Source: an uncultured Cytophagia bacterium (GTDB lineage: Bacteria > Zhuqueibacterota > Zhuqueibacteria > Oceanimicrobiales > Oceanimicrobiaceae). Taken from it: a stretch of DNA of 64,000 nucleotides. The translations under genes were made by a program, and so were the position numbers. Below are positions 28,857-60,166 of this stretch, in pieces. How positions within the stretch are numbered: position 1 is the first letter of the stretch; each line of letters begins with the position of its first letter. The notes under the pieces are model-generated. The model saw only the letters and a list, made by a program, of their open reading frames with translations. It made no database searches and was not told the DNA's origin. The DNA is taken from the NCBI GenBank assembly GCA_964539665.1, contig CAZIKB010000020.1, positions 526 to 64,525 on the forward strand. Direction: 5' to 3'.

Positions 28857-30947
28857 TTGGAAACCATGAATGACCAACAAAATCAAATCCAAAAATCTGC
28901 TGAGTGGCAGCAGAAATTGCTCTATTTTGTTATGGGGTTTTTATTTTTTGAAACGTTAACCGGCCTTTCCATTTATTTACTTCCTTTCAGTGTTCCAAAC
29001 CAAATAATGGTGCTGCTGCATACAGTCATTGGGCTGATTTTCATCATTCCTTTTACATGGTATCAAATCCGACACTGGCTCATTTACCGCTCGATGACTA
29101 TTAACCATTTCAAACTGACCGGCTATTTCTCTTTGATTGTAACATTGGTGGCTGCTGTATCAGGTTTGGTTTTAACATTTCAGGCAATTTTCCAGACTCG
29201 AATCAGCTATGTCTGGGACCTGTTACATATCGTTTCAACCTTTGCATTGATCGCCGCTTTGGTGCCACACATCGTTGTCATTATGATTCGTGATTTCAAA
29301 GCAAGCAAACAGGAATCATTACAGCCAGTCCTTGCTGCCGAAAAGAAGTTTAGTTTGAACACCCTTCTTATCACGATAATACTTTTTGCGGTAGCAGCCC
29401 TTTTTGTGTATGCCTATGAACCGGTGACTCTGGAGAATAAGTTTCCCGAGGACTATAGCTACCTCTATGGAGCTGAAAGGCCTTTTGCACCAAGCCTGGC
29501 AACTACTTCGACTGGTGGAGCTTTTGACTCTAAATCTTTAGGTGGTTCTCAGAGTTGTGGAACCTCCGGCTGCCACGAACAGATTCTCCAAGAATGGCAA
29601 GTCAGCGCTCACCGATATTCGGCAATGGATGCAGCTTTTCAATTAGTCCAAAAGGTTATGGCCGAACAAAATGGGCCGGAGTCTACTCGCTATTGTGGCG
29701 GGTGTCACGATCCAATATCACTATTCTCAGGTACAAAGAATATTTTCAATGATGATTTGACCAATCTCACAGGTTATCAGGAAGGCGTATCGTGCATTGC
29801 GTGTCATGCTATCAAAGAAACCGACGTCAAAGGCAATGCCAAATATGTTATCACTCAGCCCGGTCGCTATATGTTCGAATTACACGAAGGAGAAACATTC
29901 AGGTTATTAAGAGATTTTCTAATTCGGGCATATCCCCAATATCATGTTGAAAGTTTACAACACCGTATGTTTAAAAGTCCGGAATTCTGCGCAGCCTGCC
30001 ACAAACAGTTTATAGATGAAGAGGTTAATAATGTTGGCTGGGTTCAACTTCAGAATCAATATGACAACTGGCGCAAAAGCCGATGGAATCATCCGGGCGA
30101 TCCAACAAAAACCGTCGAATGTCGTGAATGTCACATGCCGCTTAATGAATCGTCAGATCCTGCAAGTGGCGATCCTCTGGATTATAATCGTTCCACAACA
30201 GATAAAAAACACCGCAGTCACCGGTTTATCGCAGCCAATCAATTTATGCCCGGACTACTGAAGCTTACCGGTGCTGACGAACAGATAGCATTAACAGAAA
30301 AGTGGCTTCAGGGTAAATTCGAAATTCCAGAAATTGCAGATAAGTGGCAACCGGGTCCGGCGGTACCCATTGAATTAAAGGTACCGGAAAACGTAGTGCC
30401 TGGCCAGGAAGTGAAGATTCAAGTACTCATTGCCAATAATAAAGTCGGTCACGATTTCCCAACCGGACCACTTGACATCATCCAGGCATGGGTAGAATTG
30501 ATAGTAAAGGATCAGGATGGAAATATGGTATTTACTTCTGGTACAATAGATGAACAAAATTTTATTAAACCAGGGTCTTTCATTTTTAAAGCAGAAGCTG
30601 TTGACCAAAATGGCAATCTGATTGACCGCCATAATCTCTGGGAAATGGTCGGTGTGCGGTATCGCCGCGCTCTTTTTCCCGGTTTTTCCGATAAAGCAGA
30701 ATTTGCTTTTCCATGTCCGGCCAGCATGACGATTGCAGAAGGGCCGATGATGCCGACAAAAGAAGATTTTAAATTTCAGGTACCTGGTCAACGAGTGACA
30801 CAGTTAAAGGTAGACGCCAAGCTAATGTACCGAAAAATTGATCAATACTTGCTGAATTTTCTTCTTGGAAAAGATTCCGGGATCACCGCCCCGGTAACAA
30901 TCATCTCTGAAGATGAAAAAGAAATAGAAGTTAAGAATAATTTATAA
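28857..30947 (+). CDS. membrane-anchored multiheme cytochrome c (5 predicted N-terminal TM helices with conserved His, then a periplasmic domain with 4 CXXCH and 1 CX4CH)
   Basis: TM segments at ~aa 20-190 carrying His residues (HTVIGLIF, HIVSTFALIAALVPHIVV). Heme motifs CGGCH, CIACH, CAACH, CRECH plus CGTSGCH. TAAATTTG sits at 28809-28816 upstream. Confidence 0.7.
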   Translation: METMNDQQNQIQKSAEWQQKLLYFVMGFLFFETLTGLSIYLLPFSVPNQIMVLLHTVIGLIFIIPFTWYQIRHWLIYRSMTINHFKLTGYFSLIVTLVAAVSGLVLTFQAIFQTRISYVWDLLHIVSTFALIAALVPHIVVIMIRDFKASKQESLQPVLAAEKKFSLNTLLITIILFAVAALFVYAYEPVTLENKFPEDYSYLYGAERPFAPSLATTSTGGAFDSKSLGGSQSCGTSGCHEQILQEWQVSAHRYSAMDAAFQLVQKVMAEQNGPESTRYCGGCHDPISLFSGTKNIFNDDLTNLTGYQEGVSCIACHAIKETDVKGNAKYVITQPGRYMFELHEGETFRLLRDFLIRAYPQYHVESLQHRMFKSPEFCAACHKQFIDEEVNNVGWVQLQNQYDNWRKSRWNHPGDPTKTVECRECHMPLNESSDPASGDPLDYNRSTTDKKHRSHRFIAANQFMPGLLKLTGADEQIALTEKWLQGKFEIPEIADKWQPGPAVPIELKVPENVVPGQEVKIQVLIANNKVGHDFPTGPLDIIQAWVELIVKDQDGNMVFTSGTIDEQNFIKPGSFIFKAEAVDQNGNLIDRHNLWEMVGVRYRRALFPGFSDKAEFAFPCPASMTIAEGPMMPTKEDFKFQVPGQRVTQLKVDAKLMYRKIDQYLLNFLLGKDSGITAPVTIISEDEKEIEVKNNL

Positions 30948-30951
30948 GCTC

Positions 30952-32760
30952 ATGCTTGAAAATCTTTCTCGGCGAAAAAGACATCTCCTCGTTACAGTTT
31001 CTATTGGATTTTTATTTATTGTGGCGATGGCTGTTATTTTTTGGATTGTTTTAAAACCTGCTCAACCCTATCGCCCAGGCGAAAATATTGAAGGGCTGAC
31101 AGCAGAACTTTCACGCTCCATGCCAATGGATTACCCCAAAATCACCTTTGTGGATGCCACAAAAGAAGCCGGTATCTTTTTCCAACATTTTTCTGGAAAA
31201 CGCTCATCCCAACTTCCCGAAGATATGGGCTCTGGCGCTGCCTGGGGTGACTATGATAATGACGGCTGGCAGGATCTTTTTATTGTCAATCAAATTGGCC
31301 CTTTGAACATGAGCCGCGAGGAAATTAATCAATCGCCTGCACATTGTGCCCTATACCATAATAATGGCGACGGAACGTTTAGCGAAGTGAGTGTCCCGGC
31401 GGGAGTTGATTATCGTGGTTGGGGTATTGCAGCAGCCTGGGGTGATTACAACAACGATGGTTGGCCCGATCTTTTCATCACCAATTTTGGTGAAAACGTG
31501 CTTTACTATAACAACGGTGATGGCACATTTATCGATAAATCCAGGCAAGCAGGAATTGGCGGGCAAAAAGGATTCTGGGCTGGAGTCTCGTGGGCAGATT
31601 TCAATCGTGATGGTTTTCTCGATCTCTATGTTTGTGGCTATGTTAAGTATTCCTTCCAGGAGGAGCAATTGACAACTTTGCAATACGATGTCGAAGTTCC
31701 CGTCAGCATCAATCCGTCCGCGTTTGAACCAGAACGGAATCTTCTCTACCGAAACAATGGCGATGGCACATTCAGTGAAATTGCCATTCGAGCCGGAGTC
31801 GCCGATCCCAATGGACGAAGTCTCTCGTCTGCCTGGTGTGATTTCGATGACGATGGCTGGCCTGATTTGTACGTTGCCAATGATGTATCGGATAATGTTT
31901 TGTTCCGTAATTTGGGCAACGAGTTATTTGAAGACATAAGTCATGCTGCATGGGTAGCCGACTACCGGGGAGCCATGGGAATTGCAGTTGGCGACTGGGA
32001 TAGAGACGCTGATATGGATATGTTTATCACACACTGGATAGCTCAGGAAAACGCGCTTTACAACAATAAATACCAGCAATTCAGATCAAACAATTCAGCT
32101 TCGAAAGTGCTGCGGTTTATGGATGAAGCAGATCGTTACGGATTAGGGCAAATTGCTCTCGACTTTATAGGTTTCGGAACTTCATTTTTTGATTATGACA
32201 ATGACACTAATTTAGACATTTTCGTAGCAAACGGGAGTACATTTCAGCAGAGAGAAAATCCTCAGCTACTAATCCCAATGACAGACCAGCTTTTCAGGAA
32301 CTATGGAACAGAGGAAGGTTTTTATGATATATCGATTGTAAGTGGGGATTATTTTACTCGTAAGTATGTTGGACGCGGCGCTGCGTTTGGCGATTATGAC
32401 AACGATGGAGATGTGGATATTTTTGTCGTTAATAACGACGGACCTGGTATCCTGCTAAAAAATGATGGTGGTAACCAAAACCCATGGCTTCAGGTTAAAC
32501 TTGAGGGTAACAAAAGTAACCGTCAGGCAATTGGAGCAAAATTAAGGCTCGTCACAGGGAATACAGTTCAAAGCCGGCAGGTTGGAGCACAGAGTTCGTA
32601 TTGCTCACAAAATAGCCTCATCCAACATTTCGGTCTCGGTAGTTACACATCGGTTGATACACTAGAAATTACCTGGCCAAATGGTTCAAGGCAATCTTTG
32701 CAAAATATCCCTGCCAATCACACTTTACGAGTGCTTGAGGGAGAAAATAACCATCGATAG
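30952..32760 (+). CDS. CRTAC1-family protein, single module (FG-GAP repeats + ASPIC/UnbV), 602 aa
   Basis: GDYDNDGWxDLF-type repeats and C-terminal ASPIC (NPWLQVKLEGNKSNRQAIGAKLRLVTGN...SQNSLIQHFGLG). Starts 5 bp after the cytochrome stop. Confidence 0.85.
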   Translation: MLENLSRRKRHLLVTVSIGFLFIVAMAVIFWIVLKPAQPYRPGENIEGLTAELSRSMPMDYPKITFVDATKEAGIFFQHFSGKRSSQLPEDMGSGAAWGDYDNDGWQDLFIVNQIGPLNMSREEINQSPAHCALYHNNGDGTFSEVSVPAGVDYRGWGIAAAWGDYNNDGWPDLFITNFGENVLYYNNGDGTFIDKSRQAGIGGQKGFWAGVSWADFNRDGFLDLYVCGYVKYSFQEEQLTTLQYDVEVPVSINPSAFEPERNLLYRNNGDGTFSEIAIRAGVADPNGRSLSSAWCDFDDDGWPDLYVANDVSDNVLFRNLGNELFEDISHAAWVADYRGAMGIAVGDWDRDADMDMFITHWIAQENALYNNKYQQFRSNNSASKVLRFMDEADRYGLGQIALDFIGFGTSFFDYDNDTNLDIFVANGSTFQQRENPQLLIPMTDQLFRNYGTEEGFYDISIVSGDYFTRKYVGRGAAFGDYDNDGDVDIFVVNNDGPGILLKNDGGNQNPWLQVKLEGNKSNRQAIGAKLRLVTGNTVQSRQVGAQSSYCSQNSLIQHFGLGSYTSVDTLEITWPNGSRQSLQNIPANHTLRVLEGENNHR

Positions 32761-32813: not shown

Positions 32814-33686
32814 ATGAAAAACACTGTTTTATTAGCTCTGTCCGGCCTGCTGCTGCTTTTTTTGGCAATCACTTTTCTAAAGGATCATTCTTCAGAGGTC
32901 GGCTCACAAAATGACTCTACTAAAGAAGATTCAGCTGACAAAAACAAAATTCAACGATTCTGGCAGATTCATCGGCAAGCGACTACACATCGAATTGCCG
33001 GACGAACTCAGCCGGCCATTGAAGCATATTGCACAACTCTCGAACTTAACGATCAACATGAGAACACCCTTTATTATCTGGGCAGCTTATACTTCGAATC
33101 TGGTGAATTTAAAAAAGCAGAAAATCTTTGGATACAATTGGTGAAAGTCAATCCCAACAGCGCTCGTGCACATGCTCAGTTAGGCAGACTTTATCTAAAA
33201 TCAGGTCAGGAAGAGTTTTACAACTTGGAATCCGCCAGGATTGAATTTCAAAAAGCCATGGCGCTGAACAAAGAGGAAACCGGCCCGCTGCTTCACCTTG
33301 GTCAGATTGCGCTAATTGAGGGCAATTTTACCGAAGCAGCTCATTACTTTAGTGCCGTGACCGGCTCCAACTTTAAAAGCGTTGAAGCCCATTATTTAAG
33401 TGGTTTTGTCTGGTGGAAACAGGGGCATTCACAAAAGGCGCTGCTCTCACTGAAAAAGGCCCTGAAATATCTGCTGCCTGAGAAACCGATACATGGACTT
33501 CCGGGCGAAGGCGATACTAAAACCGGCGAATCACTGGGAAAGTCAACTCAGCAAATTCTTTTTCCGATGAATTTACACAATCTCATTGGACTTGATGATA
33601 TTGAGCTTGCAAAACAAATGGAAACCAGGTTTCAAAAATTAGAATCGTTTCTTGAGCAAATCAGAAAAGAGAGACCATTAAAATAA
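32814..33686 (+). CDS. secreted TPR-repeat protein (290 aa)
   Basis: Signal peptide and TPR repeats (YYLGSLYFESGEFKKAENLW..., AHAQLGRLYLKSGQ...). Confidence 0.6.
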   Translation: MKNTVLLALSGLLLLFLAITFLKDHSSEVGSQNDSTKEDSADKNKIQRFWQIHRQATTHRIAGRTQPAIEAYCTTLELNDQHENTLYYLGSLYFESGEFKKAENLWIQLVKVNPNSARAHAQLGRLYLKSGQEEFYNLESARIEFQKAMALNKEETGPLLHLGQIALIEGNFTEAAHYFSAVTGSNFKSVEAHYLSGFVWWKQGHSQKALLSLKKALKYLLPEKPIHGLPGEGDTKTGESLGKSTQQILFPMNLHNLIGLDDIELAKQMETRFQKLESFLEQIRKERPLK

Positions 33687-33762: not shown

Positions 33763-35619
33763 TTGGTTAGCAAAATCGTGAAATCTAATAAAAATATATT
33801 CCGCTTTTTCAAATTCTTTTTGCACAAATATTTATTGGGAGCTGTCATTCTAACGTTTCTCATAACATTTGTCATGTATAAAATTGGAAAAACTAACTTT
33901 ATCTCTGCCAGAGAGGCTTTATCTGTTTCTCTCGCAAAAAGAATGGGCTCAGAATTCTATAATAATAGCCTGAAAGTCTTTTCAGAATCGCTGGAAGAGT
34001 TTGATTGGCAAAAGCCGGATAATATTGCTCAATTGGATAAAATAGTAAAAACGAACACTGAACATTTTGATGTATTAAAATTAAATATAATTAATCGGGC
34101 AAAACGAATTGTTTATAGTACAGATTCTAATAATATTGGCAGCCTTCAGAACAATCAAAAGCTGGTCAAATCCTTTGAAGGTGCGCAGGTTTCCAGTTTA
34201 ATACTAAACAGTGAAAAGCTTGATACCGAAAACGCGCTACTCGAATCTTTCATCCCATTTCGTGTCTCTGACGATAATTTTGACGGCGGTAATGAAATTA
34301 TCGGAGTCTTTGTAATCTACCAAGGCGCAGCGACGCTTAATCAACAGATATTAACATTGCGCAATACTATTTTCGTTGCCGCTTTTGCAATGTTAGTTCT
34401 TGTTATCCTTTGTTTCAGGTATGTGGTCGCGCGTGCAGATCAGACACAAATGAAGTTGAGAAGAGAGATTGAAAATTACGCTGAGAATTTAGAACAAATG
34501 GTCACAGATCGTACCAAAGAGTTGAGCGAAGAAAAAATCAAACTCCAGGTAATTTTAAACCATGTACCAAGCGCTTTTGTACTTGTGGACAAAAACTTTC
34601 GTATAAAAAGTGCCAGCACAGCCCTTCGGGAATTTACGGATAAAAGTCTCGAAGAAGTTGAGAATCAACACTGTTACCAGGTGATTTGTAATAAGAAACC
34701 AAGTGGAATTTGCCCGACTACAAAAGCGCTTAAAAGTAATCATGTCGAAAATAGAATTTTAACCTTAAAACAAAAAGATGGTAAAGAGAGGTGTTTAGAG
34801 CATGTAGCGGTTCCTATTTCAAACAATGGGAAAATCGAATCGATACTTGAAATCTTTACCGATATCACCGAAAAGAAAAAGATGCAGGACTTAATTATTC
34901 AAGCAGAAAGAGTTTCCGCTATGGGGCAAATCGCGGCGACAATTTCTCATGAAATTCGGAACGGCCTGACATCTGTTAAATTAATTTTGCAGCATTTAGC
35001 AGTTTCTCTATCCCAGGATAAAAAGAAAGCAGCCAATGTTGCCCTGCAGTCGATTAATGATATGGAAAATGTAGTCAGGCAATTGTTAGATTTCGCCCGA
35101 CCTACGCCAATATCTTTCAAAACAACAGATATAAATAAATTATTAAAGCACAGTATGGATTTTTGTAAACAACAATTAGAATTGAAGTATCTTAAACTGC
35201 AGGAAGATTATGGAGATAACATCCCCAAGCGCCGTTTAGACGCTGAACATATAAGACAAGCGGTGATTAATCTAATTTTGAATGCTATTCAGGCTTCAAA
35301 AGAAAATGAAACGCTTGGCATTAAAACCACGGTCTCTCCATTGGAAATGAACATGAGCGACTATTTTATAGAAAAAAAAGCATCTATACATTTAAAAAAG
35401 AACCAGCGAGTGGTGAAGATTGATATATCAGATAAAGGCTGCGGAATTCCGCCTGAAAATTTAAATCGTATTTTTGACCCCTTTTTCACTACAAAAATTG
35501 ACGGCTCTGGCCTGGGTCTGCCGGTGACACAACGTACTGTTCATGAACATGGAGGAATCATTACAGTAAATAGTAAACCTGGCCTTGGAAGCACATTCAC
35601 AATAATTTTACCTGTTTAG
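33763..35619 (+). CDS. sensor histidine kinase (2 TM, periplasmic sensor, Cys-containing PAS, HisKA, HATPase_c)
   Basis: TM helices near aa 25-45 and 200-222, H-box ATISHEIRNGL, and G-boxes (DKGCGIPPEN, GSGLGLPV, GLGSTFTIILP). Confidence 0.8.
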   Translation: MVSKIVKSNKNIFRFFKFFLHKYLLGAVILTFLITFVMYKIGKTNFISAREALSVSLAKRMGSEFYNNSLKVFSESLEEFDWQKPDNIAQLDKIVKTNTEHFDVLKLNIINRAKRIVYSTDSNNIGSLQNNQKLVKSFEGAQVSSLILNSEKLDTENALLESFIPFRVSDDNFDGGNEIIGVFVIYQGAATLNQQILTLRNTIFVAAFAMLVLVILCFRYVVARADQTQMKLRREIENYAENLEQMVTDRTKELSEEKIKLQVILNHVPSAFVLVDKNFRIKSASTALREFTDKSLEEVENQHCYQVICNKKPSGICPTTKALKSNHVENRILTLKQKDGKERCLEHVAVPISNNGKIESILEIFTDITEKKKMQDLIIQAERVSAMGQIAATISHEIRNGLTSVKLILQHLAVSLSQDKKKAANVALQSINDMENVVRQLLDFARPTPISFKTTDINKLLKHSMDFCKQQLELKYLKLQEDYGDNIPKRRLDAEHIRQAVINLILNAIQASKENETLGIKTTVSPLEMNMSDYFIEKKASIHLKKNQRVVKIDISDKGCGIPPENLNRIFDPFFTTKIDGSGLGLPVTQRTVHEHGGIITVNSKPGLGSTFTIILPV

Positions 35620-35726
35620 GGGATTGGAGAAAATGACATTCTCATATATTTTTTATATTCACATACTAATAAAATTAACAGAAAAATCAATTACGTAATT
35701 TATATATCCAGCCCCCTTAATTGACT

Positions 35727-37151
35727 ATGAAAAAAAAGCATCCCAAAATCTTAATCATTGATGATGATGATAAAATTGTTTTCGCTATTCAACTGATTTT
35801 AGAAAGCGATGGATTTACAATTCTAACCGCTCAAAATGGCAAAGATGGCTGGGAAATGATAAAAAAAGAAGCGCCGGACATTACTATTCTTGACATTCAA
35901 ATGCCCGGGATGAGTGGACTGGAAGTGCTTGAAAAAATAGGCGAAGATAAAATAGACACTTCGGTAATAGTTATCACAGGTTTTGGAACCATGGACACAG
36001 CAATTCGATCCATGCAATTAGATGCCTTTGACTACCTTACCAAACCTTTAGACATGGAAAAAGTTAAAATATTGTGTCGAAGAGCTTTGGAAATACGTAA
36101 TTTAAAAAAAGAGATTCATGGATTACGGGCTCAGTTGGATGTTAGTTATGAAGAGGATACATTAGTCGGTAATTCTGGAACCATGCAGGAGATTTACAAA
36201 ACCATCGGCAGCATCACATCAACTCCAAACGATAGTTCCATTCTAATTCAAGGCGAAAGCGGTACAGGAAAAGAACTGGTTGCCAAGGCGATTCACAGAA
36301 ATTGCCACCGTTCTTCATTTCCTTTTATCGTAGTCAATTGTACTGTTTTAGTGGAAAACCTTTTGGAAAGCGACCTTTTTGGACATGAAAAAGGCGCCTT
36401 TACCGGAGCCCATGAACGAAAGATCGGTAGATTAGAATTAGGGAATAAGGGCACTATTTTTTTTGATGAGATTGGTGATTTGAGTATGAATCTCCAACAA
36501 AAGCTGCTTAGATTACTACAAGAACGCGAATTCGAAAGGGTAGGAGGCACTGAAACTCTTAAAGTGGACGCCCTGCTTATTTTTGCCACTCATCGGGATT
36601 TAGAAAAAGAAGTGGAATCTGGTAATTTCAGAGAAGACCTTTATTTCCGCATGAATGTCATTCCCATTAATCTTCCTCCGTTACGGGAGCGAAAAGAAGA
36701 TATTCCGATTTTAATCATCAATTTCCTGGCGAAGTACAACAGAAAGCTGGGCAAACCAGTGACGGCTGTATCAAAAGAAGCGATGCAGGCATTAGAAGCT
36801 TACGACTATCCCGGGAATGTCCGGGAATTGAGTAATCTCGTCGAACGAGCAATTGCCCTGAATCAAAAATCGGTGCTTACATTAGGATGCCTTCCAAACA
36901 TTCTTCAGCGTGAGGATGAACAGACCGATTTTAACATTCCAATCAAAGAGCTTAATTATATAAAGGCAAGAAAAGACATATTAAGGGCGTTTGAAAAAAA
37001 ATTCCTTTCCAAGCTTCTCAGGATCTACCATGGTAATGTGGCAAATGCTGCAAAACAAGCTGGAATGGAGCGACAAAGCTTCTATCGCCTTCTTAAAAAA
37101 CACGAAATTAATCCAAAACAATATTATCAATCGTCGTCACCGTCCGGGTGA
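35727..37151 (+). CDS. sigma-54-dependent NtrC-family response regulator (REC + AAA+ + Fis HTH)
   Basis: Receiver (ILIIDDDD...DITILDIQMPGMSG...KP), GESGTGKE, GAFTGA, and a C-terminal HTH (NVANAAKQAGMERQSFYRLLKKH). Confidence 0.85.
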   Translation: MKKKHPKILIIDDDDKIVFAIQLILESDGFTILTAQNGKDGWEMIKKEAPDITILDIQMPGMSGLEVLEKIGEDKIDTSVIVITGFGTMDTAIRSMQLDAFDYLTKPLDMEKVKILCRRALEIRNLKKEIHGLRAQLDVSYEEDTLVGNSGTMQEIYKTIGSITSTPNDSSILIQGESGTGKELVAKAIHRNCHRSSFPFIVVNCTVLVENLLESDLFGHEKGAFTGAHERKIGRLELGNKGTIFFDEIGDLSMNLQQKLLRLLQEREFERVGGTETLKVDALLIFATHRDLEKEVESGNFREDLYFRMNVIPINLPPLRERKEDIPILIINFLAKYNRKLGKPVTAVSKEAMQALEAYDYPGNVRELSNLVERAIALNQKSVLTLGCLPNILQREDEQTDFNIPIKELNYIKARKDILRAFEKKFLSKLLRIYHGNVANAAKQAGMERQSFYRLLKKHEINPKQYYQSSSPSG

Positions 37152-37361
37152 CAAAAAGTAACCTTGAATGAAAACATGTCCTAAGAGCTACATCGTTTTA
37201 CATTTCCTCGTAGTCGACATAAGCTGTTTTATTTTAGTAACTTAACTTTAATCCCAAAAGCATATTATTCTAACTCGGTTCTGGCGCAATACTTGCATGT
37301 TACTTATTTGAAACAATATCTTTACAAACAGTTTTTCCCTTCATCGATGGGAATCCATGCC

Positions 37362-37826
37362 ATGTCAAAAGAACTAAATTTTAGTGAGTCAATTAAGGAC
37401 AAGAACAGACCTGCCATGTGTAAGAACACAATTTTGTTGGTAGACGAGGATCCGAAGGTTGGCGCAGCTTTTCAAGAATTTTTCCAGGATTTTATTACAG
37501 ATGGAAAATATCGGATGATACAAGCAACGACCCTGTCTGACGCACTAAAGCACCTGAAAGAAAACAGAATTGACCTCATCATCACGGACCTGAGATTGTC
37601 ACAATACTCTGGACTCAGTCTCTTGATTCGTGTGCGAGCTACGCCAAATAAGGTGCCGGTTATCGTTATGAGCGCTTACACCGATTTCATGTCAGTAGAA
37701 GACTGGAAACTTCTGGGAGCTACGGAATTTATTTCCAAGCCGCCAGACTTGAACCTTCTGCAGGAAGTTATTTCCAAACTTTTGACGAACAGTAATGATA
37801 AAATGCAATCTCAACATGACCAGTAA
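37362..37826 (+). CDS. stand-alone CheY-like receiver-domain protein
   Basis: ILLVDEDP...DLIITDLRLSQYSG...VIVMSAY...FISKP. Start chosen at an internal Met; the ORF is open from 37293. Confidence 0.65.
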   Translation: MSKELNFSESIKDKNRPAMCKNTILLVDEDPKVGAAFQEFFQDFITDGKYRMIQATTLSDALKHLKENRIDLIITDLRLSQYSGLSLLIRVRATPNKVPVIVMSAYTDFMSVEDWKLLGATEFISKPPDLNLLQEVISKLLTNSNDKMQSQHDQ

Positions 37827-38503: not shown

Positions 38504-38525
38504 AAACGTAGTGAAGGATAAAAGG

Positions 38526-39425: not shown

Positions 39426-39561
39426 GGATAGTAAGGAATCAACAACAATACTCAAGCTTAATAATTTCTTAAACGCAGATATTTAAATTTATTAAAAATG
39501 AAAATGTATGCATACTGCGAGTAGTACGTGTTCCAGCGTCAAGACTTTACGAGCGAAATTG

Positions 39562-41532: not shown

Positions 41533-41546
41533 ATTCAGGAGTTCCA

Positions 41547-43190: not shown

Positions 43191-43205
43191 AAGAGAGTGA
43201 GAAAA

Positions 43206-46097: not shown

Positions 46098-46112
46098 AAA
46101 GGAAATATCAGA

Positions 46113-47291
46113 ATGAATCGAATATTTATTATCCTGACAACATTCATTTTCCTTGCACCTCACGGCTGGTGTCAATCAGATACTAACATCACCATGGCGG
46201 GTGAGCCCTACGTTTATTCTAAATGGGAGACATTCACAAGCGAATCAACACATGATGGTCTAATCAGCGACCATATCTTTTTTCTGGAAGCAGATGGTAA
46301 TAGTTTATGGATTGGCACCGAAGGTGGATTGGTGCTATATGAGAAAGGCGCCTGGAAAAGTTGGACGGAGAAGGACGGCCTGCCGTGGAATGTGGTAATG
46401 GGAATCGCAAAAGATCCAAAAACCGGGGAATTGTGGCTGGCGCTATTTGGAGAAGGTATCGCCCGATTTAGCGGAGGCTACTTTCAACACTACACCCAAA
46501 TGAACAGCGGCTTAATAAATGATGTGGTGTATGGCATAGATATTCAAGGGGATTACGTGTGGGTTGCTACCACGGCTGGCATCAGCCGGTATAATCAGGT
46601 GTCCGGAGAATGGACCTTGTTCAATGAGAAACATGCTCCAATGGAGGAAGTTTGGACTTATAATGTAGACGCTGCAGAAGACAAAGTCTATTTTGCCGTC
46701 TGGGGTGGCGGTATTCTTGAGTGGGATGTGGCCACTGAAAGCTGGAATGTTTATCATGATCCTGATGGAGAAATGGAAATTGATTTATACCGGGATGACG
46801 GCCTAATTCATGTTATTACCACCGCTGCATCTTACATCGATGGTGTGCTCTGGGCTGCAACATACTTTGGATTGAGCCGATACGATGGCCGCAACTGGCG
46901 TGGGTATATGGATCATGACAGCGGCCTTCCCAGCAATTTCATAAATTTTACGGTAGGCCGAAACGGTACTTCAAGCTATAGCTGCACAGATAAAGGACTG
47001 GGAGTGTTAGTAGATTATAAAACCGATACCTGGGTCACATATCAGCGGGATGAGGAAGACGCCGAAACATGGACCGCCCATGTGATGGTTGGAAAAAAAG
47101 AAATTAAAACCGTGCCCACTAATCTGGATTTACCAAATCATTTCACCTTAGCTCTGGAATTTATGGGAAACGATTTATGGGTTGGCACCGGACATGGACT
47201 GGCCCGAGGCATTGGCATAGGTTATTACACAGGATTGCAAGCTAAAAATACTAATTCTGGAAAGATTAAAACCTCTGATTCTCAAAATTAG
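46113..47291 (+). CDS. secreted beta-propeller protein made of Reg_prop (two-component-regulator propeller) repeats, no output domain
   Basis: Repeats such as LWIGTEGGLVLYEKGAWKSWT, VWVATTAGISRYNQVSGEWTLF, LWAATYFGLSRYDGRNWRGY, LWVGTGHGLARG. Confidence 0.65.
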   Translation: MNRIFIILTTFIFLAPHGWCQSDTNITMAGEPYVYSKWETFTSESTHDGLISDHIFFLEADGNSLWIGTEGGLVLYEKGAWKSWTEKDGLPWNVVMGIAKDPKTGELWLALFGEGIARFSGGYFQHYTQMNSGLINDVVYGIDIQGDYVWVATTAGISRYNQVSGEWTLFNEKHAPMEEVWTYNVDAAEDKVYFAVWGGGILEWDVATESWNVYHDPDGEMEIDLYRDDGLIHVITTAASYIDGVLWAATYFGLSRYDGRNWRGYMDHDSGLPSNFINFTVGRNGTSSYSCTDKGLGVLVDYKTDTWVTYQRDEEDAETWTAHVMVGKKEIKTVPTNLDLPNHFTLALEFMGNDLWVGTGHGLARGIGIGYYTGLQAKNTNSGKIKTSDSQN

Positions 47292-47350
47292 AAAATCATA
47301 TTTAATAGTACAATATTTTGTATTTCAATATCTGCAGGAAGAAAAGAACC

Positions 47351-48763
47351 ATGAACAGATTACATATTTTATTTGCAATTATAGTTGTCGGGTGTACTTT
47401 CATATTCTGTTCTAATGTGAGTGCGCAGACCAGTGAATCGGTTTCTGCTACAAAATCCGACACAACATCATACGGCAAAACACCCATTGAATATGAACCT
47501 TATAGCCGTTTCGAAAAGCCATATAAAAGATTTTTCATCGACACCCTGGTATATCCCGGCTATGGGCGGCATATCCCAGTACCCGAACAAATTGACACGG
47601 TTAAAATAGGTTTTATCGGTCCCATTATTGGCTCTGTTTCTGAGTCTGCGGGAGGCCCGGATGAAATAAAATTAAAGGTGAACCAGCGAGTCGTGCGTTG
47701 GGATGGCTATCGGGCTTCTCATCTGGCGCCGATTGGGATTAAAATGTTTCAGGGTGCCCAACTTGCAATTGAACATGCAAATACAAACGGTGGCTATAAA
47801 GGAAAAGTACCCTATAAGCTGATTGTTCGTAACGACAACGGTAACTGGCGTTCTTCCGGAAGAGAGGTCATTACGCTTGCATATAAAGATAGCGTTTGGG
47901 CTATCCTTGGGACAGTGGATGGGGCAAATAGCCATATTGCCATACGCGCTGCTCTAAAAGCTGAAATTCCAGTTATGAATACTGCGGATACTGATCCCAC
48001 ATTTGTGGAAACCAGAATTCCCTGGGTGTTCCGATGCATCACAGACGACCGGCAGATGTGCTATCTACTGGCGGATTTCGCCTTTAAAAAATTGGGGCTC
48101 AAACGCATAGCTGCACTTCGTGCAACCAACCGCTACGGGCGCATGAGTATTGACGAGTTCCGGGACGCGGCCACGCGTCTTGGGTATCCCTTCAAGATCG
48201 AACTGCAATATCAAGAGGGCGATACGGATTTCAGCAGTCAGTTAAAGAGGATTCAAGCAATGAAGGCGGATGGTGTAATCACTTACGGCAACGCAATCGA
48301 ATCTGCTTTGATACTCAAACAAATGCGGGAAATGGGCATGGAGCAGTGGTTCTTCGGCAGCGATCGCATGGTTACACCTGAATTTCTTGAAATCGTCGAA
48401 GAGAATCATGGACGTGTAGCAGCAGGCTATCCGTATGATCCTACCAGTGAAGATGCTGAGTATCTGCAATTTGTAGAAGATTTTCAGAACCAGTATGGAG
48501 ATGCACCAGAAACATACGCCGCACATGCTTATGACGGCATGAATATGATTATTGCGGCCATTGAAAAAGCCGGATTGAATCGAGCACTCATTAGAGATCA
48601 ACTGGTTGCTATGTCCCAATATAAGGGTGTAACTGGCAGAAAAGAATTCGATGCGGTCTACAGCGATAGAAGTCCTGCTTTTTTAGCAATCTTTAAAAAC
48701 GGCAAATTCGAATATTATACCAAGGAAGAAATTTTCTCGGATAAAATTGATCTACCTCGGTAA
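47351..48763 (+). CDS. periplasmic solute-binding protein, Peripla_BP_6 / LivK-like family (orphan)
   Basis: Signal peptide, then KIGFIGPIIGS...GAQLAIEHANTNGGYKG...YKLIVRNDNGNW...LGTVDGANSHIA...IPVMNTADTDPT. Start set at the ATG at 47351 with an upstream GGAAG. Confidence 0.75.
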   Translation: MNRLHILFAIIVVGCTFIFCSNVSAQTSESVSATKSDTTSYGKTPIEYEPYSRFEKPYKRFFIDTLVYPGYGRHIPVPEQIDTVKIGFIGPIIGSVSESAGGPDEIKLKVNQRVVRWDGYRASHLAPIGIKMFQGAQLAIEHANTNGGYKGKVPYKLIVRNDNGNWRSSGREVITLAYKDSVWAILGTVDGANSHIAIRAALKAEIPVMNTADTDPTFVETRIPWVFRCITDDRQMCYLLADFAFKKLGLKRIAALRATNRYGRMSIDEFRDAATRLGYPFKIELQYQEGDTDFSSQLKRIQAMKADGVITYGNAIESALILKQMREMGMEQWFFGSDRMVTPEFLEIVEENHGRVAAGYPYDPTSEDAEYLQFVEDFQNQYGDAPETYAAHAYDGMNMIIAAIEKAGLNRALIRDQLVAMSQYKGVTGRKEFDAVYSDRSPAFLAIFKNGKFEYYTKEEIFSDKIDLPR

Positions 48764-48780
48764 TTGAACTTCTAGGTGAT

Positions 48781-50016
48781 ATGAAAACCCATCGATTGCT
48801 CTGGATTTTGTGGTTAGTTTTCTTCTGGACAGTCCAGATACAGAGTCAAACCAAAACCTCTGCTCAAACTGCTCACCAAAGAAAGCCACCAGGTGTTCTG
48901 GATTCACCTGTGAATTTTTCAGGATGGATAGGAACCAGCAGGAGTCCTGATCAGCTAAAAGAAATTCGTATTGGTTTTTTCGCACCGGTGGACCCGGATG
49001 ATCTGGTGGGCGCTTCTATGCTTAATGCTGCTGTGTTGGCGGTAGAAGAAGCAAATGCTGCGGGAGGATTCCAGGGCGTACCGTTCAGACTGGTTAAACG
49101 CTGGGCACACAAACCCTGGGGCGCTGGCTCCAAAGAAATGATTAAGCTGGTGTATCAGGACAGTGTGTGGGCAGTGATTGGATCTTTGAACGGAAGTGCA
49201 ACGCATGTCGCGGAACAGGTTGTAACCAAAGCGTGGGTACCTCTGCTCTCGCCAGTCTCGGCTGATCCGACGCTTACTTATATTCGCATTCCATGGATGT
49301 TCCGGCTACCTCCCGATGACCAGAAACAGGCGGAAGCTATTGTACACAAAGGAATTCAGGCGTTATCTCTGAATAATATTGGTCTCATCACTTCTACTGA
49401 TCACGACGGCCGTATATTTGCAAAGGAAACGCTCGCCACAATGAATGATGCACAGACTCCGCCAGTATTTCATTTTCAGTTGCCTCTGCCCGGGATTGAT
49501 TTTAATGATATCGTCCAACGAGTGCTGTCATTCAATCCTGATGGAGTCATTGTACGCCTGCCGTGGGGTGAAACTCTTGAATTGCTGAATCATTTTCAAC
49601 ACAGTGATTTTGATGTCCCCGTATTCATTCCCTGGATTCCGGGTTTGCAGGAGGCAGATTTGACAAATCAATACGATGGAGATATTTTCTTTGTGCAACC
49701 GTTTTCTGGAACGGGAAATCCAGTATATACCGCCTTCGCTCAAATTTATCGAGAGCGCTATGAAGCGAGCCCCACGCCTGGCGCCACCTACACCTATGAT
49801 GCTGTAAATATTCTGATCCAATCACTACAAAAAAGCGGATTAAACCGGGCCAGACTTCGGGATGCTATTGCCGGGATCGGCGATTTTCATGGCGCCACCG
49901 GTAAAATTTCCTGGGATAACGGCGGCGGAAATGTAGCAGAACCTGTTCTTCGGATTCTATCTGGAAAAGCACCGACCGTGAAAGGGAAAATGCAAAAAAT
50001 CAATATTTTGCATTGA
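48781..50016 (+). CDS. second Peripla_BP_6 / LivK-like solute-binding protein (paralog, orphan)
   Basis: Signal peptide, then IRIGFFAPVDPDD...LNAAVLAVEEANAAGGFQG...IGSLNGSATHVAEQV...VPLLSPVSADPTLT. Confidence 0.75.
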   Translation: MKTHRLLWILWLVFFWTVQIQSQTKTSAQTAHQRKPPGVLDSPVNFSGWIGTSRSPDQLKEIRIGFFAPVDPDDLVGASMLNAAVLAVEEANAAGGFQGVPFRLVKRWAHKPWGAGSKEMIKLVYQDSVWAVIGSLNGSATHVAEQVVTKAWVPLLSPVSADPTLTYIRIPWMFRLPPDDQKQAEAIVHKGIQALSLNNIGLITSTDHDGRIFAKETLATMNDAQTPPVFHFQLPLPGIDFNDIVQRVLSFNPDGVIVRLPWGETLELLNHFQHSDFDVPVFIPWIPGLQEADLTNQYDGDIFFVQPFSGTGNPVYTAFAQIYRERYEASPTPGATYTYDAVNILIQSLQKSGLNRARLRDAIAGIGDFHGATGKISWDNGGGNVAEPVLRILSGKAPTVKGKMQKINILH

Positions 50017-50097
50017 AGGAATTAGCTCATCAGGGTCTTCAGCCTTTTCAGCCAGATTTGTAACTAACATTTTTAAGCAAAAAAAGGAGACAATTTA

Positions 50098-51426
50098 ATG
50101 TATAACACTCAATCTATTCAACGGGTTATCGATTTAACGGATCCTTCTAAAAACATTATTTATAATATGACAGTAGAAAAAGCCAGAGAGCTTGTTGCGT
50201 GTGGTAATCCAGAGAAAGTTCGCACCATTGACGGTCAATTCGCTATTGTAGCAAAGAAAGGCAAAAAAGTACGCCTGGCGCGCTCTATAGGAAGACCACT
50301 GCGTTATTTTATTGCCAAAAAAGCGGATGGCCCAAATCTTATCGTAGCAGACCGAATCGATACTATTTTCAATTATTTAAACAAAGAGAAAATTGACGAC
50401 CAATTTCATCCTTCATATACGCGTATGGCGCCAGCACATTACGTCACTGAAGTTGACCTTGTTGGTTGCCCGGATCCAAATCCGACTTATCAGAGATTTT
50501 TCACACCCTTAAGAAACACCCAAAAGCTGGATGTTGTTGATATTGGCTGCCTTTATATGCAGACCCTGTACGATGAAATTGTCAAATGGCTGCAAAACAG
50601 AGCCACAGAAGGTCCCATAGGAGTATGTTTTTCAGGCGGGATTGACAGCGGTTCGATTTTCCTGCTAACCTATAATGCGATGCTTAAACTTGGATTATCT
50701 CCGGCACGGCTTAAGGCTTTTACGCTTGCTGTTGAAGGCGGCGGTGATGATTTGGCTCAAGCAAAATGTTTCCTCGATAAACTTGATCTCTCTATGTTTC
50801 TGGAACCGATTGAAGTCTCAAAAGATGATGTGAATTGGCGGGATACGATTCGTGTAGTCGAGGATTACAAGCCTCTCGACATCCAGGCTGCAGCCATGAC
50901 TCTTGCCTTATATCGTGGTATTAGAAAGCGTTATCCGGAATGGCGCTTCTTTATTGACGGGGACGGCGGAGATGAAAACCTGAAAGATTATCCCATTGAA
51001 GAAAATCCTGAACTCACTATTCGCAGTGTCTTAAATAATTTAATGCTTTATCATGAAGGCTGGGGTGTGGACTCAATCAAGCATTCCCTGACCTATTCCG
51101 GTGGACTCAGTCGAGGTTACACACGCACCTACGCTACCGCAAGCCTGTTTGGCTTTGATAACTATAGCCCTTACACACTTCCAAACGTGATTGAGGTTGC
51201 GGAATCCATACCGTACGTGGCTTTAACAGAATGGAACCATGAGAAGTTGTATCGATTAAAAGGCGAGATTGTCTCCAAAGGTATAAAATCCATAACAGGT
51301 ATGGATATGCCTGTATTTCCAAAACGCAGGTTTCAGCATGGCGCTGCAACACATAGTGAGTTTGACAATTTGTTTCCCAAAAAACCTGCTGAGTACCGAC
51401 GAACTTTCTACAGTGTCTATGAATGA
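50098..51426 (+). CDS. asparagine-synthase-like PP-loop ATP-pyrophosphatase lacking the N-terminal Cys2 glutaminase nucleophile (442 aa)
   Basis: PP-loop GVCFSGGIDSGS. An AsnB-like N-terminal remnant (IDGQFAIVAKKGKKVRLARSIGRPLRYFIAK) with no Cys at position 2. Its stop overlaps the next gene's start. Confidence 0.6.
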   Translation: MYNTQSIQRVIDLTDPSKNIIYNMTVEKARELVACGNPEKVRTIDGQFAIVAKKGKKVRLARSIGRPLRYFIAKKADGPNLIVADRIDTIFNYLNKEKIDDQFHPSYTRMAPAHYVTEVDLVGCPDPNPTYQRFFTPLRNTQKLDVVDIGCLYMQTLYDEIVKWLQNRATEGPIGVCFSGGIDSGSIFLLTYNAMLKLGLSPARLKAFTLAVEGGGDDLAQAKCFLDKLDLSMFLEPIEVSKDDVNWRDTIRVVEDYKPLDIQAAAMTLALYRGIRKRYPEWRFFIDGDGGDENLKDYPIEENPELTIRSVLNNLMLYHEGWGVDSIKHSLTYSGGLSRGYTRTYATASLFGFDNYSPYTLPNVIEVAESIPYVALTEWNHEKLYRLKGEIVSKGIKSITGMDMPVFPKRRFQHGAATHSEFDNLFPKKPAEYRRTFYSVYE

Positions 51427-52366
51427 GGCTTCACCTGTTCAGCCTGATGATCGGTGGATATTAGCACAACGCCCATCGAAAAATTCTGTGAACGCCTGGC
51501 AGCCTTATGCTTATCTCGCAGAAAAAGAACGAATGCAAAACGGTGTGGTCGAAAATGTGGCAACCATATTTCTGACAAATCGTGAATGCCCATTCCGCTG
51601 CCTGATGTGTGATCTCTGGAAGAATACAACGGAACACCGAGTGCCTGAGGGAGCAATCCCAACACAAATTCAATACGCTTTGGAGCAGCTCCCACCAGCC
51701 TCACAAATCAAGCTGTACAATAGCGGTAATTTTTTCGATGATCAAGCGATTCCACCTGTCGATATCCCAGAGATCGCGAAGCTGATAGAGTCATTCGAAT
51801 CAGTCATTGTCGAATGCCATCCTCGGCTGGTGAGTAATCGCTGTCTGGCCTTTCGGGATTTATTACGATCTGAGCTGCAAATAGCAATGGGTTTAGAAAC
51901 CGTCCATCCTGATGTGCTCAAGAAATTAAACAAGCGCATGACGCTGAAAGATTTTGAGCATGCCGCGAATTTTCTCATAAATAATGACCTGTCAGTTCGA
52001 GCTTTTATACTGCTTGGCGCTCCCTATCTGAACGAAGCAGAATCAGTAATTTGGGCCAGGCGCTCAATAGATTTTGCCTTCGATGTCGGGGTAGAATGTT
52101 GTGTGATCATTCCAACGAGGAGTGGAAATGGTGCAATAGAACGGCTGCATAAACTCGGGTTATATGGCCCACCGAAAATTGCATCCCTGGAAGAAGTGCT
52201 TGAATACGGAATTCAGTTACAGCAAGGACGTGTGTTTGCCGACCTCTGGGATGTTGAGAAATTCGCAAATTGTAATCAATGCAGTGCACAGCGAATTCAC
52301 AGGATGGGCCAGATGAATTTCACACAAATGATAGCGTCAGTTATACATTGTAACTTTTGTTTTTAA
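51419..52366 (+). CDS. radical SAM enzyme (CX3CX2C), translationally coupled to the AsnB-like gene
   Basis: CPFRCLMCDLW motif. The ATG at 51419 overlaps the upstream TGA at 51424-51426. Extra C-terminal Cys residues (CNQCS, HCNFCF). Confidence 0.7.
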   Translation: MNEASPVQPDDRWILAQRPSKNSVNAWQPYAYLAEKERMQNGVVENVATIFLTNRECPFRCLMCDLWKNTTEHRVPEGAIPTQIQYALEQLPPASQIKLYNSGNFFDDQAIPPVDIPEIAKLIESFESVIVECHPRLVSNRCLAFRDLLRSELQIAMGLETVHPDVLKKLNKRMTLKDFEHAANFLINNDLSVRAFILLGAPYLNEAESVIWARRSIDFAFDVGVECCVIIPTRSGNGAIERLHKLGLYGPPKIASLEEVLEYGIQLQQGRVFADLWDVEKFANCNQCSAQRIHRMGQMNFTQMIASVIHCNFCF

Positions 52367-60164: not shown

Positions 60165-60166
60165 GT

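Follow-up and report, generated by a model that had tools for sequence, protein, structure and literature searches.

A hydrazine synthase-like gene cluster and its modular surroundings in an uncultured Cytophagia bacterium

Which function could unite multiheme cytochromes, CRTAC1-like proteins, a two-component system and a radical SAM/AsnB-like pair in one run of bacterial genes? The question is raised by positions 28857-52366 of a stretch of 64,000 nucleotides, here called the window, from an uncultured Cytophagia bacterium (assembly GCA_964539665.1, contig CAZIKB010000020.1, positions 526 to 64,525 of the forward strand). An initial annotation of this 23-kb block listed three unrelated multiheme cytochromes and took the combination, which it did not recognise as a described system, for a possible extracellular machine specific to its lineage. 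Here we report that two of these cytochromes are homologs, as judged from profile and structure-database matches, of subunits of one enzyme, hydrazine synthase (HZS), which was long believed to be without relatives. The function of the numerous HZS homologs outside anammox bacteria is a recognised open question, and the data presented here give testable handles on it.

Homology to hydrazine synthase

The first of the two cytochromes is encoded at 39508-41532 (+), with a start probably at ATG 39562, and combines a signal peptide, a beta-propeller, an HZS_alpha middle domain and two hemes. It matches the HZS_alpha middle domain (PF18582) with 92 bits and, along its length, the hydrazine synthase alpha model NF052339 with 235 bits (cutoff 800). 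Its sole relative in the PDB is 5C2V_A, which aligns in four stretches that span the protein (E 4e-56). The heme motifs are a canonical CIGCH502 and a CX4CH (C552/C557/H558), both of them invariant in 47-48 of 48 homologs. CIGCH is followed by EDRE, and the phmmer alignment to 5C2V_A stops right at the CH.

The second cytochrome, encoded at 43197-46097 (+), is a beta-gamma fusion in which two tetraheme c554 domains (PF13435, matched twice, E 9e-33) stand N-terminal to the HZS part, made up of an HZS-beta-like seven-bladed propeller and an HZS-gamma/CCP-like diheme domain. We take the c554 modules to be comparable to the relays in the HAO-c554-cM552 chain of Nitrosomonas. The protein scores 202 bits against the model of the hydrazine synthase beta-gamma fusion, NF052342 (cutoff 1250), 181 against the separate beta model (cutoff 560) and 67 against the gamma model (cutoff 625); all four HZS models matched in NCBIfam (NF052339, NF052342, NF052340 and NF052341) are thus hit below their equivalog cutoffs. 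PDB matches are 5C2V_B (E 1e-37) and 5C2V_C (E 5e-16). Cys810 aligns with chain position C126 of 5C2V_C, that is gamma-Cys165, the residue of the third covalent heme link in HZS-gamma, and Trp799 lies in the region of gamma-His144, though the pairwise alignment does not fix the exact Trp/His column. Of 39 homologs, 38-39 keep the ten heme motifs, and all 39 keep C810 and W799. Since the two proteins match HZS models as well as chains A, B and C of 5C2V, the description of the cytochromes as unrelated does not stand.

The heme counts given earlier do agree with ours: the membrane-anchored pentaheme protein (28857-30947) has four CXXCH and one CX4CH behind five predicted transmembrane (TM) helices, the PD40-heme protein (39508-41532) one CXXCH and one CX4CH, and the approximately ten-heme propeller/CCP-like fusion (43197-46097) ten CXXCH, which adds up to seventeen c-type heme motifs over three proteins. 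An invariant CX4CH replaces CXXCH at one heme in two of them, as C234-X4-C239-H240 in the first and C552-X4-C557-H558 in the second.

Distant HZS homologs encoded in co-localised clusters have been grouped into clades I-IV by Hägglund et al. (2025, Genome Biol Evol, PMC12758564). In clade I, found for example in Syntrophobacter fumaroxidans, Thermogutta terrifontis and Paludibaculum fermentans, alpha comes first, a CRTAC1/FG-GAP gene separates it from beta-gamma (an arrangement also reported for clade II), and beta-gamma carries eight extra hemes in two c554 domains; both alpha heme sites and gamma-Cys165 are kept, Trp stands for gamma-His144, and two genes for periplasmic binding proteins (SBPs) follow downstream (PMC12758564). 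The window shows the same gene order, heme layout, cysteine, CCP-type Trp and SBP pair. Its alpha gene precedes the fused beta-gamma gene, with the CRTAC1/FG-GAP gene for CRTAC1-like protein B (41547-43190, +) between them at gaps of 14 and 6 bp. To its two C-terminal heme motifs beta-gamma adds eight N-terminal ones, and it has the gamma-Cys165 equivalent (C810) and the Trp (W799); alpha-I and alpha-II heme sites are both kept, the second as CX4CH, and the SBP genes lie downstream at 47318-48763 and 48781-50016. By gene order and residue pattern, the core of the window is a new member of this cluster type, and the combination can no longer be called undescribed.

Several features set the window apart from the published clade. 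The main text of PMC12758564 makes no mention of a Reg_prop 'regulator' propeller, a RidA/chorismatase-like protein, DAHP synthase, asparagine synthase, radical SAM protein, cytochrome b/pentaheme module or sigma-54 control. In the window, alpha has CX4CH as its second heme motif, and the host is of Marinisomatota/FCB type, a lineage that a term search of the paper did not return. Further hzs-like genes were noted by Dalcin Martins et al. (2023, PMC10732223) in metagenome-assembled genomes (MAGs) of Phycisphaerae UBA1845 and KSB1, for which a broader family with 'alternative substrates' was hypothesised. These genes belong to the same protein family; the OFTM MAGs of that study correspond to loci L063, L064 and L066 of our comparison, which run alpha-CRTAC1-betagamma-p392-(Rid-like)-SBP-DAHPS, p392 being the Reg_prop propeller and DAHPS the DAHP synthase. 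Unlike the window protein, of which it covers ~0.6, their beta-gamma does not have the N-terminal octaheme region.

Could such a cluster encode a genuine hydrazine synthase, and hence a cryptic anammox-type N-N formation from NO and ammonium outside Brocadiia? Full-length homologs of all three HZS subunits and the conserved gamma-Cys165 argue for it. As far as the structure of the Kuenenia enzyme (5C2V; Dietl et al. 2015) is presented in PMC12758564, the three full-length subunit folds are the same, with two hemes in alpha, two in the gamma-type part, a Cys-heme third link at gamma-I and a propeller between. Unlike anammox HZS, the window has the reverse gene order, beta and gamma are fused and extended by an octaheme arm, Trp replaces gamma-His144, and CRTAC1, p392 and the SBPs are candidates for extra subunits. 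Alpha heme I of the window has a canonical CXXCH, directly after which the alignment to 5C2V_A breaks, and probably neither the Tyr ligand nor the Zn site (His587/Cys303 in HZS). All homologs of clades I-III are reported to have a two-residue gap at alpha-Tyr591 and to have lost the Zn-binding Cys and the beta-loop Glu (PMC12758564). No hydrazine dehydrogenase (HDH), HAO or other anammox gene is found within the 64-kb window, and the Marinisomatota/FCB-type host is no anammoxosome-bearing one. With 235 against 800 and 202 against 1250 bits, the scores are so far under the HZS family thresholds that the cluster is not a true hydrazine synthase; that it might make hydrazine after all seems barely credible.

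Conservation and modular composition

The core is not specific to this lineage, as had been supposed. An alignment of alpha homologs retrieved 80 genome loci (labelled L001, L002 and so on) which span about ten phyla or lineages: Fidelibacterota/FCB, Gemmatimonadota, Omnitrophota, Calditrichia, Rhodothermales, Planctomycetota, Acidobacteriota, Desulfobacterota, Verrucomicrobiota and Aminicenantes. Gene counts come from tblastn of all window proteins against these loci and refer to 40 non-redundant ones with enough flanking DNA. Beta-gamma is present in all 40, CRTAC1 in 37, p392 and SBP1 in 36 each, SBP2 in 32, the Rid-like protein in 28, DAHPS in 14, the membrane cytochrome (TM5heme) in 5, and the NtrC-type regulator and the receiver-domain protein (REC) in one each; the AsnB-like protein is found in none. 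A full-length, octaheme beta-gamma (at least 90% of the window protein aligned) occurs in 26 loci, every one of which has p392, SBP1 and CRTAC1, 25 also SBP2, and all 26 keep the order alpha-CRTAC1-betagamma. Unbiased clustering of the open reading frames (ORFs) of the loci gave no further conserved family, no ccm genes and no general quinol dehydrogenase. The alpha family as a whole is large: a library clustered at 50% holds 430 representatives at E<=1e-30, 2461 at E<=1e-10 and 5781 at E<=1e-3.

Left out of this core comparison was L004/L010 (Gemmatimonadota bin75, CP070666.1). A lone alpha-like gene at 10001-11793, probably truncated and with a translation that differs from the database protein, adjoins DsrMK-like genes there (Nitrate_red_gam and CCG), and no beta-gamma, CRTAC1 or SBP genes lie alongside.

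Among the best conserved members of the cluster is p392 (46113-47291, +), a secreted protein of 392 amino acids (aa) with a single Reg_prop-type beta-propeller according to Pfam and an AlphaFold2 (AF2) model (pLDDT 86). Its relatives are annotated 'regulator' or 'ligand-binding sensor domain', and the best PDB matches of the model are the BT4663/BT4673 sensor propellers; apart from sensor domains of hybrid two-component systems (HTCS), its other PDB matches are generic propellers and indicate no function. Because identity across phyla amounts to 64-83%, we read p392 as a probable structural subunit rather than a regulator. The two genes that follow on the plus strand, SBP1 (47318-48763, start probably at ATG 47351) and SBP2 (48781-50016), encode orphan LivJ-type periplasmic binding proteins according to Pfam, NCBIfam and PDB searches, the former possibly a lipoprotein. 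Sequence searches of the PDB return branched-chain amino-acid binders first and aromatic-acid binders weakly, a mixture that fits more than one ligand class, and unbiased ORF clustering recovered no ABC permease or ATPase family in the HZS-like loci. Sec-type signal peptides or anchors can be read from the sequences of alpha, CRTAC1-B, beta-gamma, p392 and both SBPs.

Upstream of alpha, at 37901-39425, lie two genes that the initial annotation had not highlighted. The first (37901-38503, +) encodes a cytoplasmic Rid/YjgF-fold protein of 200 aa that resembles the C-terminal domain of chorismatases. The catalytic Arg of RidA is Arg105 in Escherichia coli, part of a 'PAR' motif; in alignments to 2DYY, 3VCZ and 2CSL this column is occupied by Ser (PASTGIQ). 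With that replacement and a TIGR00004 score of 50 bits (cutoff 106), an archetypal RidA imine/enamine deaminase was rejected as an assignment. RidA and the C-terminal domain of FkbO are matched equally well by the protein, and an FkbO/Hyg5 chorismatase was rejected likewise, there being no full-length match above cutoff to TIGR04444 (FkbO/Hyg5), which is hit with 50 bits over the C-terminal domain only (cutoff 325). The gene occurs in two forms, a short one of ~200 aa and a long one of 375-427 aa in Omnitrophota and others (for example L003 8854-9981, L026 4071-5216 and L043 5306-6589); the 375-aa protein of L003 reaches 68 bits against TIGR04444 over positions 63-309 of 311, at the same cutoff of 325. 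Long forms are accompanied by DAHPS in 0 of 11 loci, the remaining loci in 11 of 27.

The second gene (38526-39425, +) is, from a family model matched above cutoff, a type I-beta DAHP synthase (NF006421, 454 bits, cutoff 335; PF00793, E 1e-78). Together with a chorismatase-like enzyme it suggests, as a hypothesis only, a shikimate-derived small molecule. Both genes shift place between lineages yet remain with the cluster. In the 28 loci with a Rid-like homolog, this gene is at most 10 kb away from alpha, before or after the cluster, and DAHPS is linked to the cluster in its 14 loci, in several phyla and at varying positions. They stand upstream of the core in the window, L001, L002 and L005-L009, after SBP2 in L017, L049 and Bryobacterales, and interleaved with the SBP genes in Phycisphaerae (L054-L066). 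In L005, the closest relative, overlapping broken ORFs on both strands at 838-2553 lie directly upstream of the Rid-like gene; judged from their translations, they are probably fragments of an IS21-like transposase that mark the left edge of the conserved module there.

A second module opens the block. TM5heme (28857-30947, +; start probably at ATG 28866) has five N-terminal TM helices, a periplasmic part with its one CX4CH and four CXXCH, and a C-terminal beta-sandwich. Four invariant His residues in the TM part (H55, H73, H124 and H138) are consistent with a likely diheme cytochrome b. It has more than 3399 homologs across phyla, the top 120 of them at 67-80% identity, which NCBI names 'cytochrome b/b6 domain-containing' or 'multiheme c-type cytochrome'; its N terminus matches DUF4405 weakly, and its best PDB match is a pentaheme c552 (5ZE8, E 1.6e-4). 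The AF2 model (pLDDT 50.5) was not used for a fold search. We presume a likeness to the cytochrome b-multiheme c quinol dehydrogenases such as CbcL of Geobacter, in which a four-His membrane domain is joined to a periplasmic multiheme part. No significant sequence match to CbcL-type or Nitrosomonas proteins was obtained, and, in distinction from these, TM5heme is always paired with a CRTAC1-like protein.

In the window this partner is CRTAC1-like protein A (30952-32760, +), an FG-GAP propeller with UnbV/ASPIC and an N-terminal anchor that begins 4 bp after TM5heme; a CRTAC1 gene lies immediately downstream of TM5heme in every locus examined (L009, L014, L031, L085, L086, L087 and L168). The third member is a TPR protein with a signal or anchor (32814-33686, +), separate from or fused to the CRTAC1 partner depending on the locus. 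The fusions are single proteins of 859-880 aa (L086 12118-14697 and L087 12126-14768), and such a Rosetta-stone-type arrangement supports an interaction of CRTAC1 and TPR partners. With respect to the HZS-like core, the TM5heme unit abuts it on the same strand, with no two-component genes, in L009 and L085, is divergent from it in L014 and L031, adjoins it in L168 as well, occurs in distant versions in L029, L030 and L060, and stands without a core in two genomes, L086 and L087.

Next comes a regulatory cassette, made up of a PAS histidine kinase (HK; 33763-35619, +) with two TM segments, HisKA and HATPase_c, an NtrC-type sigma-54 enhancer-binding response regulator (35721-37151, +) with REC, AAA+ and Fis HTH parts, and the stand-alone receiver-domain protein REC (37362-37826, +), whose start was taken from the alignment to L168, where it has 151 aa. 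A predicted sigma-54 promoter, TGGCGCAATACTTGCA (37282-37297, +; -24 GG, -12 GC), lies ~65 nt upstream of the REC start, so that REC is the first gene after it. It has one mismatch to consensus; the window contains 4 matches with at most one mismatch against 0.83 expected. The adjacent enhancer-binding protein gene at 35721-37151 and this -24/-12 site are what would be expected of a sigma-54-dependent unit; rpoN is not in the window.

L078/L168 keep the HK at the same position (64% identity), an NtrC-type regulator that is 80% identical, and the promoter as TGGCACAATGCTTGCC in a spacer that is 79% identical. In L168 the cassette, at 64-80% identity, precedes a clade-III-type cluster with CRTAC1, a one-heme alpha and a three-heme beta-gamma. 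Because cassette and promoter are kept there ahead of a different HZS-like clade, we consider the cassette a probable regulatory front end for HZS-like clusters in this lineage; most other carriers do not have it. The part of the spacer that precedes the sigma-54 core (37152-37281, compared with L168 20100-20230) contains conserved blocks, for example CATAAGAGCTA and TACATTT, which could be activator binding sites.

Other sigma-54-like sites were seen at CGGCATTAAATTTGCA (window 9898-9913, +), 97 bp upstream of a SusC-type TonB receptor gene (9995), and at TGGCATTGCCTTTGCT (window 8162-8147, -), ~76 bp upstream of a 204-aa gene (7472-8086, -). A second sigma-54 activator, which has no receiver domain, is encoded at 89-1222 (-). 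One such site, TGGTACTTACGTTGCT, occurs in identical form in the planctomycete loci L041 (4833-4848) and L040 (10065-10080), from Thermoguttaceae and Blastopirellula MAGs; the L041 copy stands ~80 bp upstream of the alpha gene, with no NtrC gene nearby.

The block ends with a pair of genes that are probably translationally coupled. The first (50098-51426, +) encodes a cytoplasmic AsnB-like PP-loop protein with an SGGIDS motif and no glutaminase domain, which has no relative in a PDB sequence search and more than 568 metagenomic relatives at 62-74% identity. The second (51419-52366, +) encodes a radical SAM protein with a CX3CX2C motif (CPFRCLMC), distantly related to RaSEA. It scores 111 bits against TIGR01210 (cutoff 212), and its partner is AsnB-like and not ArcS, on which grounds it was not accepted as a true RaSEA. 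Like the ArcS/RaSEA pair of archaeosine synthesis, a radical SAM protein of the RaSEA family adjoins an enzyme of the ATP-dependent nitrogen-group-transfer type; unlike there, the neighbours are CRTAC1 and HZS-like genes in place of genes for tRNA modification.

An earlier idea of ours, that this pair is an unrelated insertion (it is absent from L005/L006 and counted 0/40 in the genome loci), was overturned by a metagenome scan. The radical SAM gene directly follows the AsnB-like gene in 51 of 55 loci, and in 27 of 41 the latter is immediately preceded by a CRTAC1-family gene. The common order in many loci is [DAHPS]-[SBP]-TPR-CRTAC1-CRTAC1-AsnBl-rSAM, AsnBl-rSAM being the pair; the genes at its upstream end form the tail of an HZS-like cluster, of which L076 is an example. 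CRTAC1-alpha'-betagamma'-p392-SBP of clade-III HZS-like clusters directly follows the pair in L096, L100, L118 and L139, in at least 12 further loci it adjoins HZS-like cluster tails, and in about half of the long loci parts of such clusters lie within 8 kb of it. That the pair recurs beside CRTAC1 genes and HZS-like clusters speaks for the initial annotation on this point. CRTAC1-like protein C (52389-54053, -), whose ortholog immediately precedes the AsnB-like gene in the same orientation in most relatives, is inverted in the window; its usual partner is a TPR-CRTAC1 fusion of 1197 aa (54400-57993, +). In L001, a Fidelibacterota chromosome, TPR-CRTAC1 and CRTAC1-C stand directly upstream of the Rid-like gene, and L005 and L006 run from SBP2 straight to an inverted CRTAC1-C.

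How do these modules add up to the block? The ORF table confirms the 16 consecutive plus-strand genes with tight spacers that had been described. With gene starts corrected from homologs, the spacers are, in order, 4, 53, 76, 101, ~210, 74, 22, 82, 14, 6, 15, 26, 17 and 81 bp, followed by an 8-bp start/stop overlap. The ~210-bp spacer separates NtrC from REC once the REC start is shifted to ATG 37362, the 22-bp spacer lies between the Rid-like gene and DAHPS with its start at ATG 38526, and the overlap joins the stop of the AsnB-like gene to the radical SAM start at ATG 51419. Pfam and NCBIfam find three CRTAC1/ASPIC-type proteins within or adjoining the block as well as PAS-HK, NtrC-type activator, lone REC, two Peripla_BP_6, Asn_synthase-like and radical SAM proteins, in agreement with the earlier domain labels. 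The interleaving of extracytoplasmic multiheme proteins with CRTAC1-like ones is likewise borne out, as is the behaviour of the tightly spaced genes as units. Synteny is kept in relatives; its absence from every relative would have refuted the initial reading.

A single 23-kb machine is not what emerges: the block consists of at least four modules that are shuffled between genomes and is not one fixed unit. Its borders are arbitrary, at 28857 as well as on the right, because the co-directional run begins at 8548/9995, well left of 28857, and CRTAC1 genes continue on both flanks (16406-28685 and 52389-57993). Scans for sigma-70 promoters and intrinsic terminators gave counts equal to those of shuffled sequence and are therefore uninformative on operon borders, and Rfam has zero RNA family matches across the whole window. 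We consider it probable, short of certain, that the block represents a mosaic island built around a clade-I HZS-like operon at 37901-50016.

A mosaic could also arise by the chance juxtaposition of unrelated same-strand operons, with no functional tie beyond the core from alpha to SBP2. Modules do occur apart, as the TM5heme-CRT-TPR unit does in L086 and L087, the closest relatives have no flanking modules, and the promoter and terminator scans do not speak to the matter. Against chance, the modules re-associate in differing orders and with differing HZS-like clades (L085, L009, L014/L031 and L168), the AsnBl-rSAM pair recurs beside HZS-like clusters and their tails in the loci given above, and the CRTAC1 family, recurring as a partner in each module, is their common denominator. 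The association is more coherent than chance would have it, and mere juxtaposition is improbable; the chemistry is not revealed by it. What appears to be new is the extended set of modular partners and the CRTAC1 theme, the core itself being neither undescribed nor lineage-specific. In the searchable literature we found no description of CRTAC1-like proteins as regular partners of multiheme cytochromes.

Candidate chemistry

What could such a system do? We picture a periplasmic oxidoreductase with 12 hemes, assembled from alpha, beta-gamma and probably the CRTAC1 and Reg_prop propellers. Two of the hemes would be candidates for catalysis, one of gamma-I type with a Cys link and one of alpha-I type with ordinary His ligation. 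Through the octaheme c554 arm, electrons may pass, in either direction, between these two hemes and the quinone pool; in this genome the route probably includes the neighbouring cytochrome b/pentaheme protein. The orphan SBPs would present or sense the substrate, which may be a small nitrogen-containing compound, either of NO/hydroxylamine type or an amine or amide brought by the binding proteins. The NtrC-type regulator would activate expression, and DAHPS, the Rid/chorismatase-like protein and the AsnB-like and radical SAM pair may make or process a shikimate-derived small molecule of amide/amidine type for the system.

Several parts are linked to nitrogen-group chemistry: the HZS ancestry, the LivJ/urea/amide-type SBPs, the Rid fold, the AsnB-type amide former, the amidine-type radical SAM protein and the NtrC-type regulator. 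For this reason we tentatively favour a small nitrogenous substrate over peroxide, at less than even confidence. The latter would be the substrate of a CCP/MauG-type system in which the gamma-like domain uses H2O2, or O2 and octaheme electrons, and either detoxifies peroxide or oxidises or cross-links a protein or bound organic compound (alpha, CRTAC1, p392 or an SBP ligand) by long-range hole hopping. The gamma-like domain indeed matches diheme peroxidases and MbnH/MauG-type enzymes (1IQC, 3O5C and 6E1C), and the C-terminal ~230 residues of 43197-46097 share with diheme CCP/MauG/MbnH the two CXXCH, an inter-heme Trp and a PxYxHDG-type motif. Invariant Trp799 stands at the place of the essential Trp of CCP/MauG and not the His of HZS-gamma, the HZS catalytic residues are reported to be missing in such homologs (PMC12758564), and the layout of propeller and diheme domain resembles amine dehydrogenase systems (TIGR03907, 48 bits).

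Unlike CCP, MauG and MbnH, the domain shares its polypeptide with a propeller and eight hemes, is paired with an alpha subunit and has, by alignment, a Cys-heme crosslink, whose Cys, typical of HZS gamma-I, is invariant. To our knowledge, no such third link occurs in CCP or MauG. Scores are low: 17 bits against the MauG model (cutoff 444) and 25 against MbnH (cutoff 363), and in the Pfam scan PF03150 (CCP_MauG) gave no match at threshold. A simple peroxidase would also need no alpha subunit, no two further propellers, no two SBPs and no eight extra hemes. We consider peroxide-driven chemistry rather unlikely.

The seventeen heme motifs in three proteins could, on the other hand, point to extracellular electron transfer (EET), that is to a multiheme conduit that reaches the cell surface, as the proposal of an extracellular or outer-membrane machine implied. 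Weak matches to MtrC/MtrF, DmsE/MtrA and ExtKL-type families would fit such a conduit, and the membrane cytochrome b/c could act as its quinol dehydrogenase. These EET family matches reach 19-39 bits against cutoffs of 192-325 (DmsE 32.5 against 192; OmcA/MtrC 19-32 against 209). Domain scans find no porin-type beta-barrel or outer-membrane cytochrome in 28857-52366, the only nearby barrel being the SusC-type TonB receptor 15 kb upstream; the heme proteins have ordinary Sec signals, and two of the three are homologous to a soluble enzyme with active-site hemes. A surface conduit is therefore very unlikely.

A nitrogenous substrate for an HZS-type oxidoreductase, which we prefer among these readings, has several points to contend with. 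No non-anammox HZS homolog has an experimental function (PMC12758564, PMC10732223), the complex that includes CRTAC1 and p392 is deduced from synteny only, and the CCP/MauG-like Trp and the reported loss of HZS catalytic residues fit peroxide chemistry equally. TM5heme goes with the core in just 5/40 complete loci, and NtrC does so in 1/40, which means that neither the electron route nor the regulation proposed here applies to carriers in general; over all loci the sigma-54 motif is not enriched, its 10 matches in 1.3 Mb being about the chance number. Of the closest relatives, L005 and L006 have no AsnBl-rSAM at this place, and L005-L007 neither TM5heme nor two-component genes. DAHPS, finally, could be a mere housekeeping copy.

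In its most far-reaching form, the proposal takes the co-conserved set, here HZS-alpha-like, CRTAC1, octaheme beta-gamma, Reg_prop propeller, two SBPs, Rid/chorismatase-like protein, DAHPS and the AsnB-like and radical SAM pair, for a widespread and so far unrecognised periplasmic nitrogen-transforming pathway. An HZS-type enzyme with two active sites would make or break N-O or N-N bonds in a substrate other than NO/NH4+, a shikimate-derived amide/amidine would serve as substrate or cofactor, and in Marinisomatota, Gemmatimonadota, Planctomycetota, Acidobacteriota and others the cytochrome b/pentaheme protein would connect it with the quinone pool. We offer this pathway as a speculation that is quite unlikely to hold in full.

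Independently of the substrate, the comparison widens the list of partners of HZS-like clusters: the Reg_prop propeller turns up as regularly as the cytochromes do, and recurrent companions are the Rid/chorismatase-like protein, DAHPS, AsnB-like/radical SAM and TPR-CRTAC1. It also suggests a candidate membrane entry point for electrons and a sigma-54/NtrC switch. For work on culturable carriers, among which PMC12758564 names Opitutus terrae besides the three clade I species given above, this points to subunits to co-purify, SBPs for ligand screens and a regulator to perturb.

Flanking regions

To the left of the block, window 9995-28685 is an array like a polysaccharide utilization locus, headed by the SusC-type TonB receptor gene (9995). 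A 530-aa protein in the SusD position, which has no Pfam match, and a 159-aa protein come next, and the array ends with three tandem paralogs of ~1240 aa with two CRTAC1 units each. At the same place, upstream of the TM5heme gene, L085 has SusC-SusD-MG2-double CRTAC1.

The outer flanks appear unrelated. A STAND-type NTPase-TPR pair is encoded at 3174-6927 (-) and a REC-PAS-GGDEF-EAL protein at 61938-63986 (-). Next to a metallophosphoesterase gene, 58074-61270 (-) encodes a protein with a weak SMC_N match (E 2e-4), a pair that we take to resemble SbcC/SbcD.

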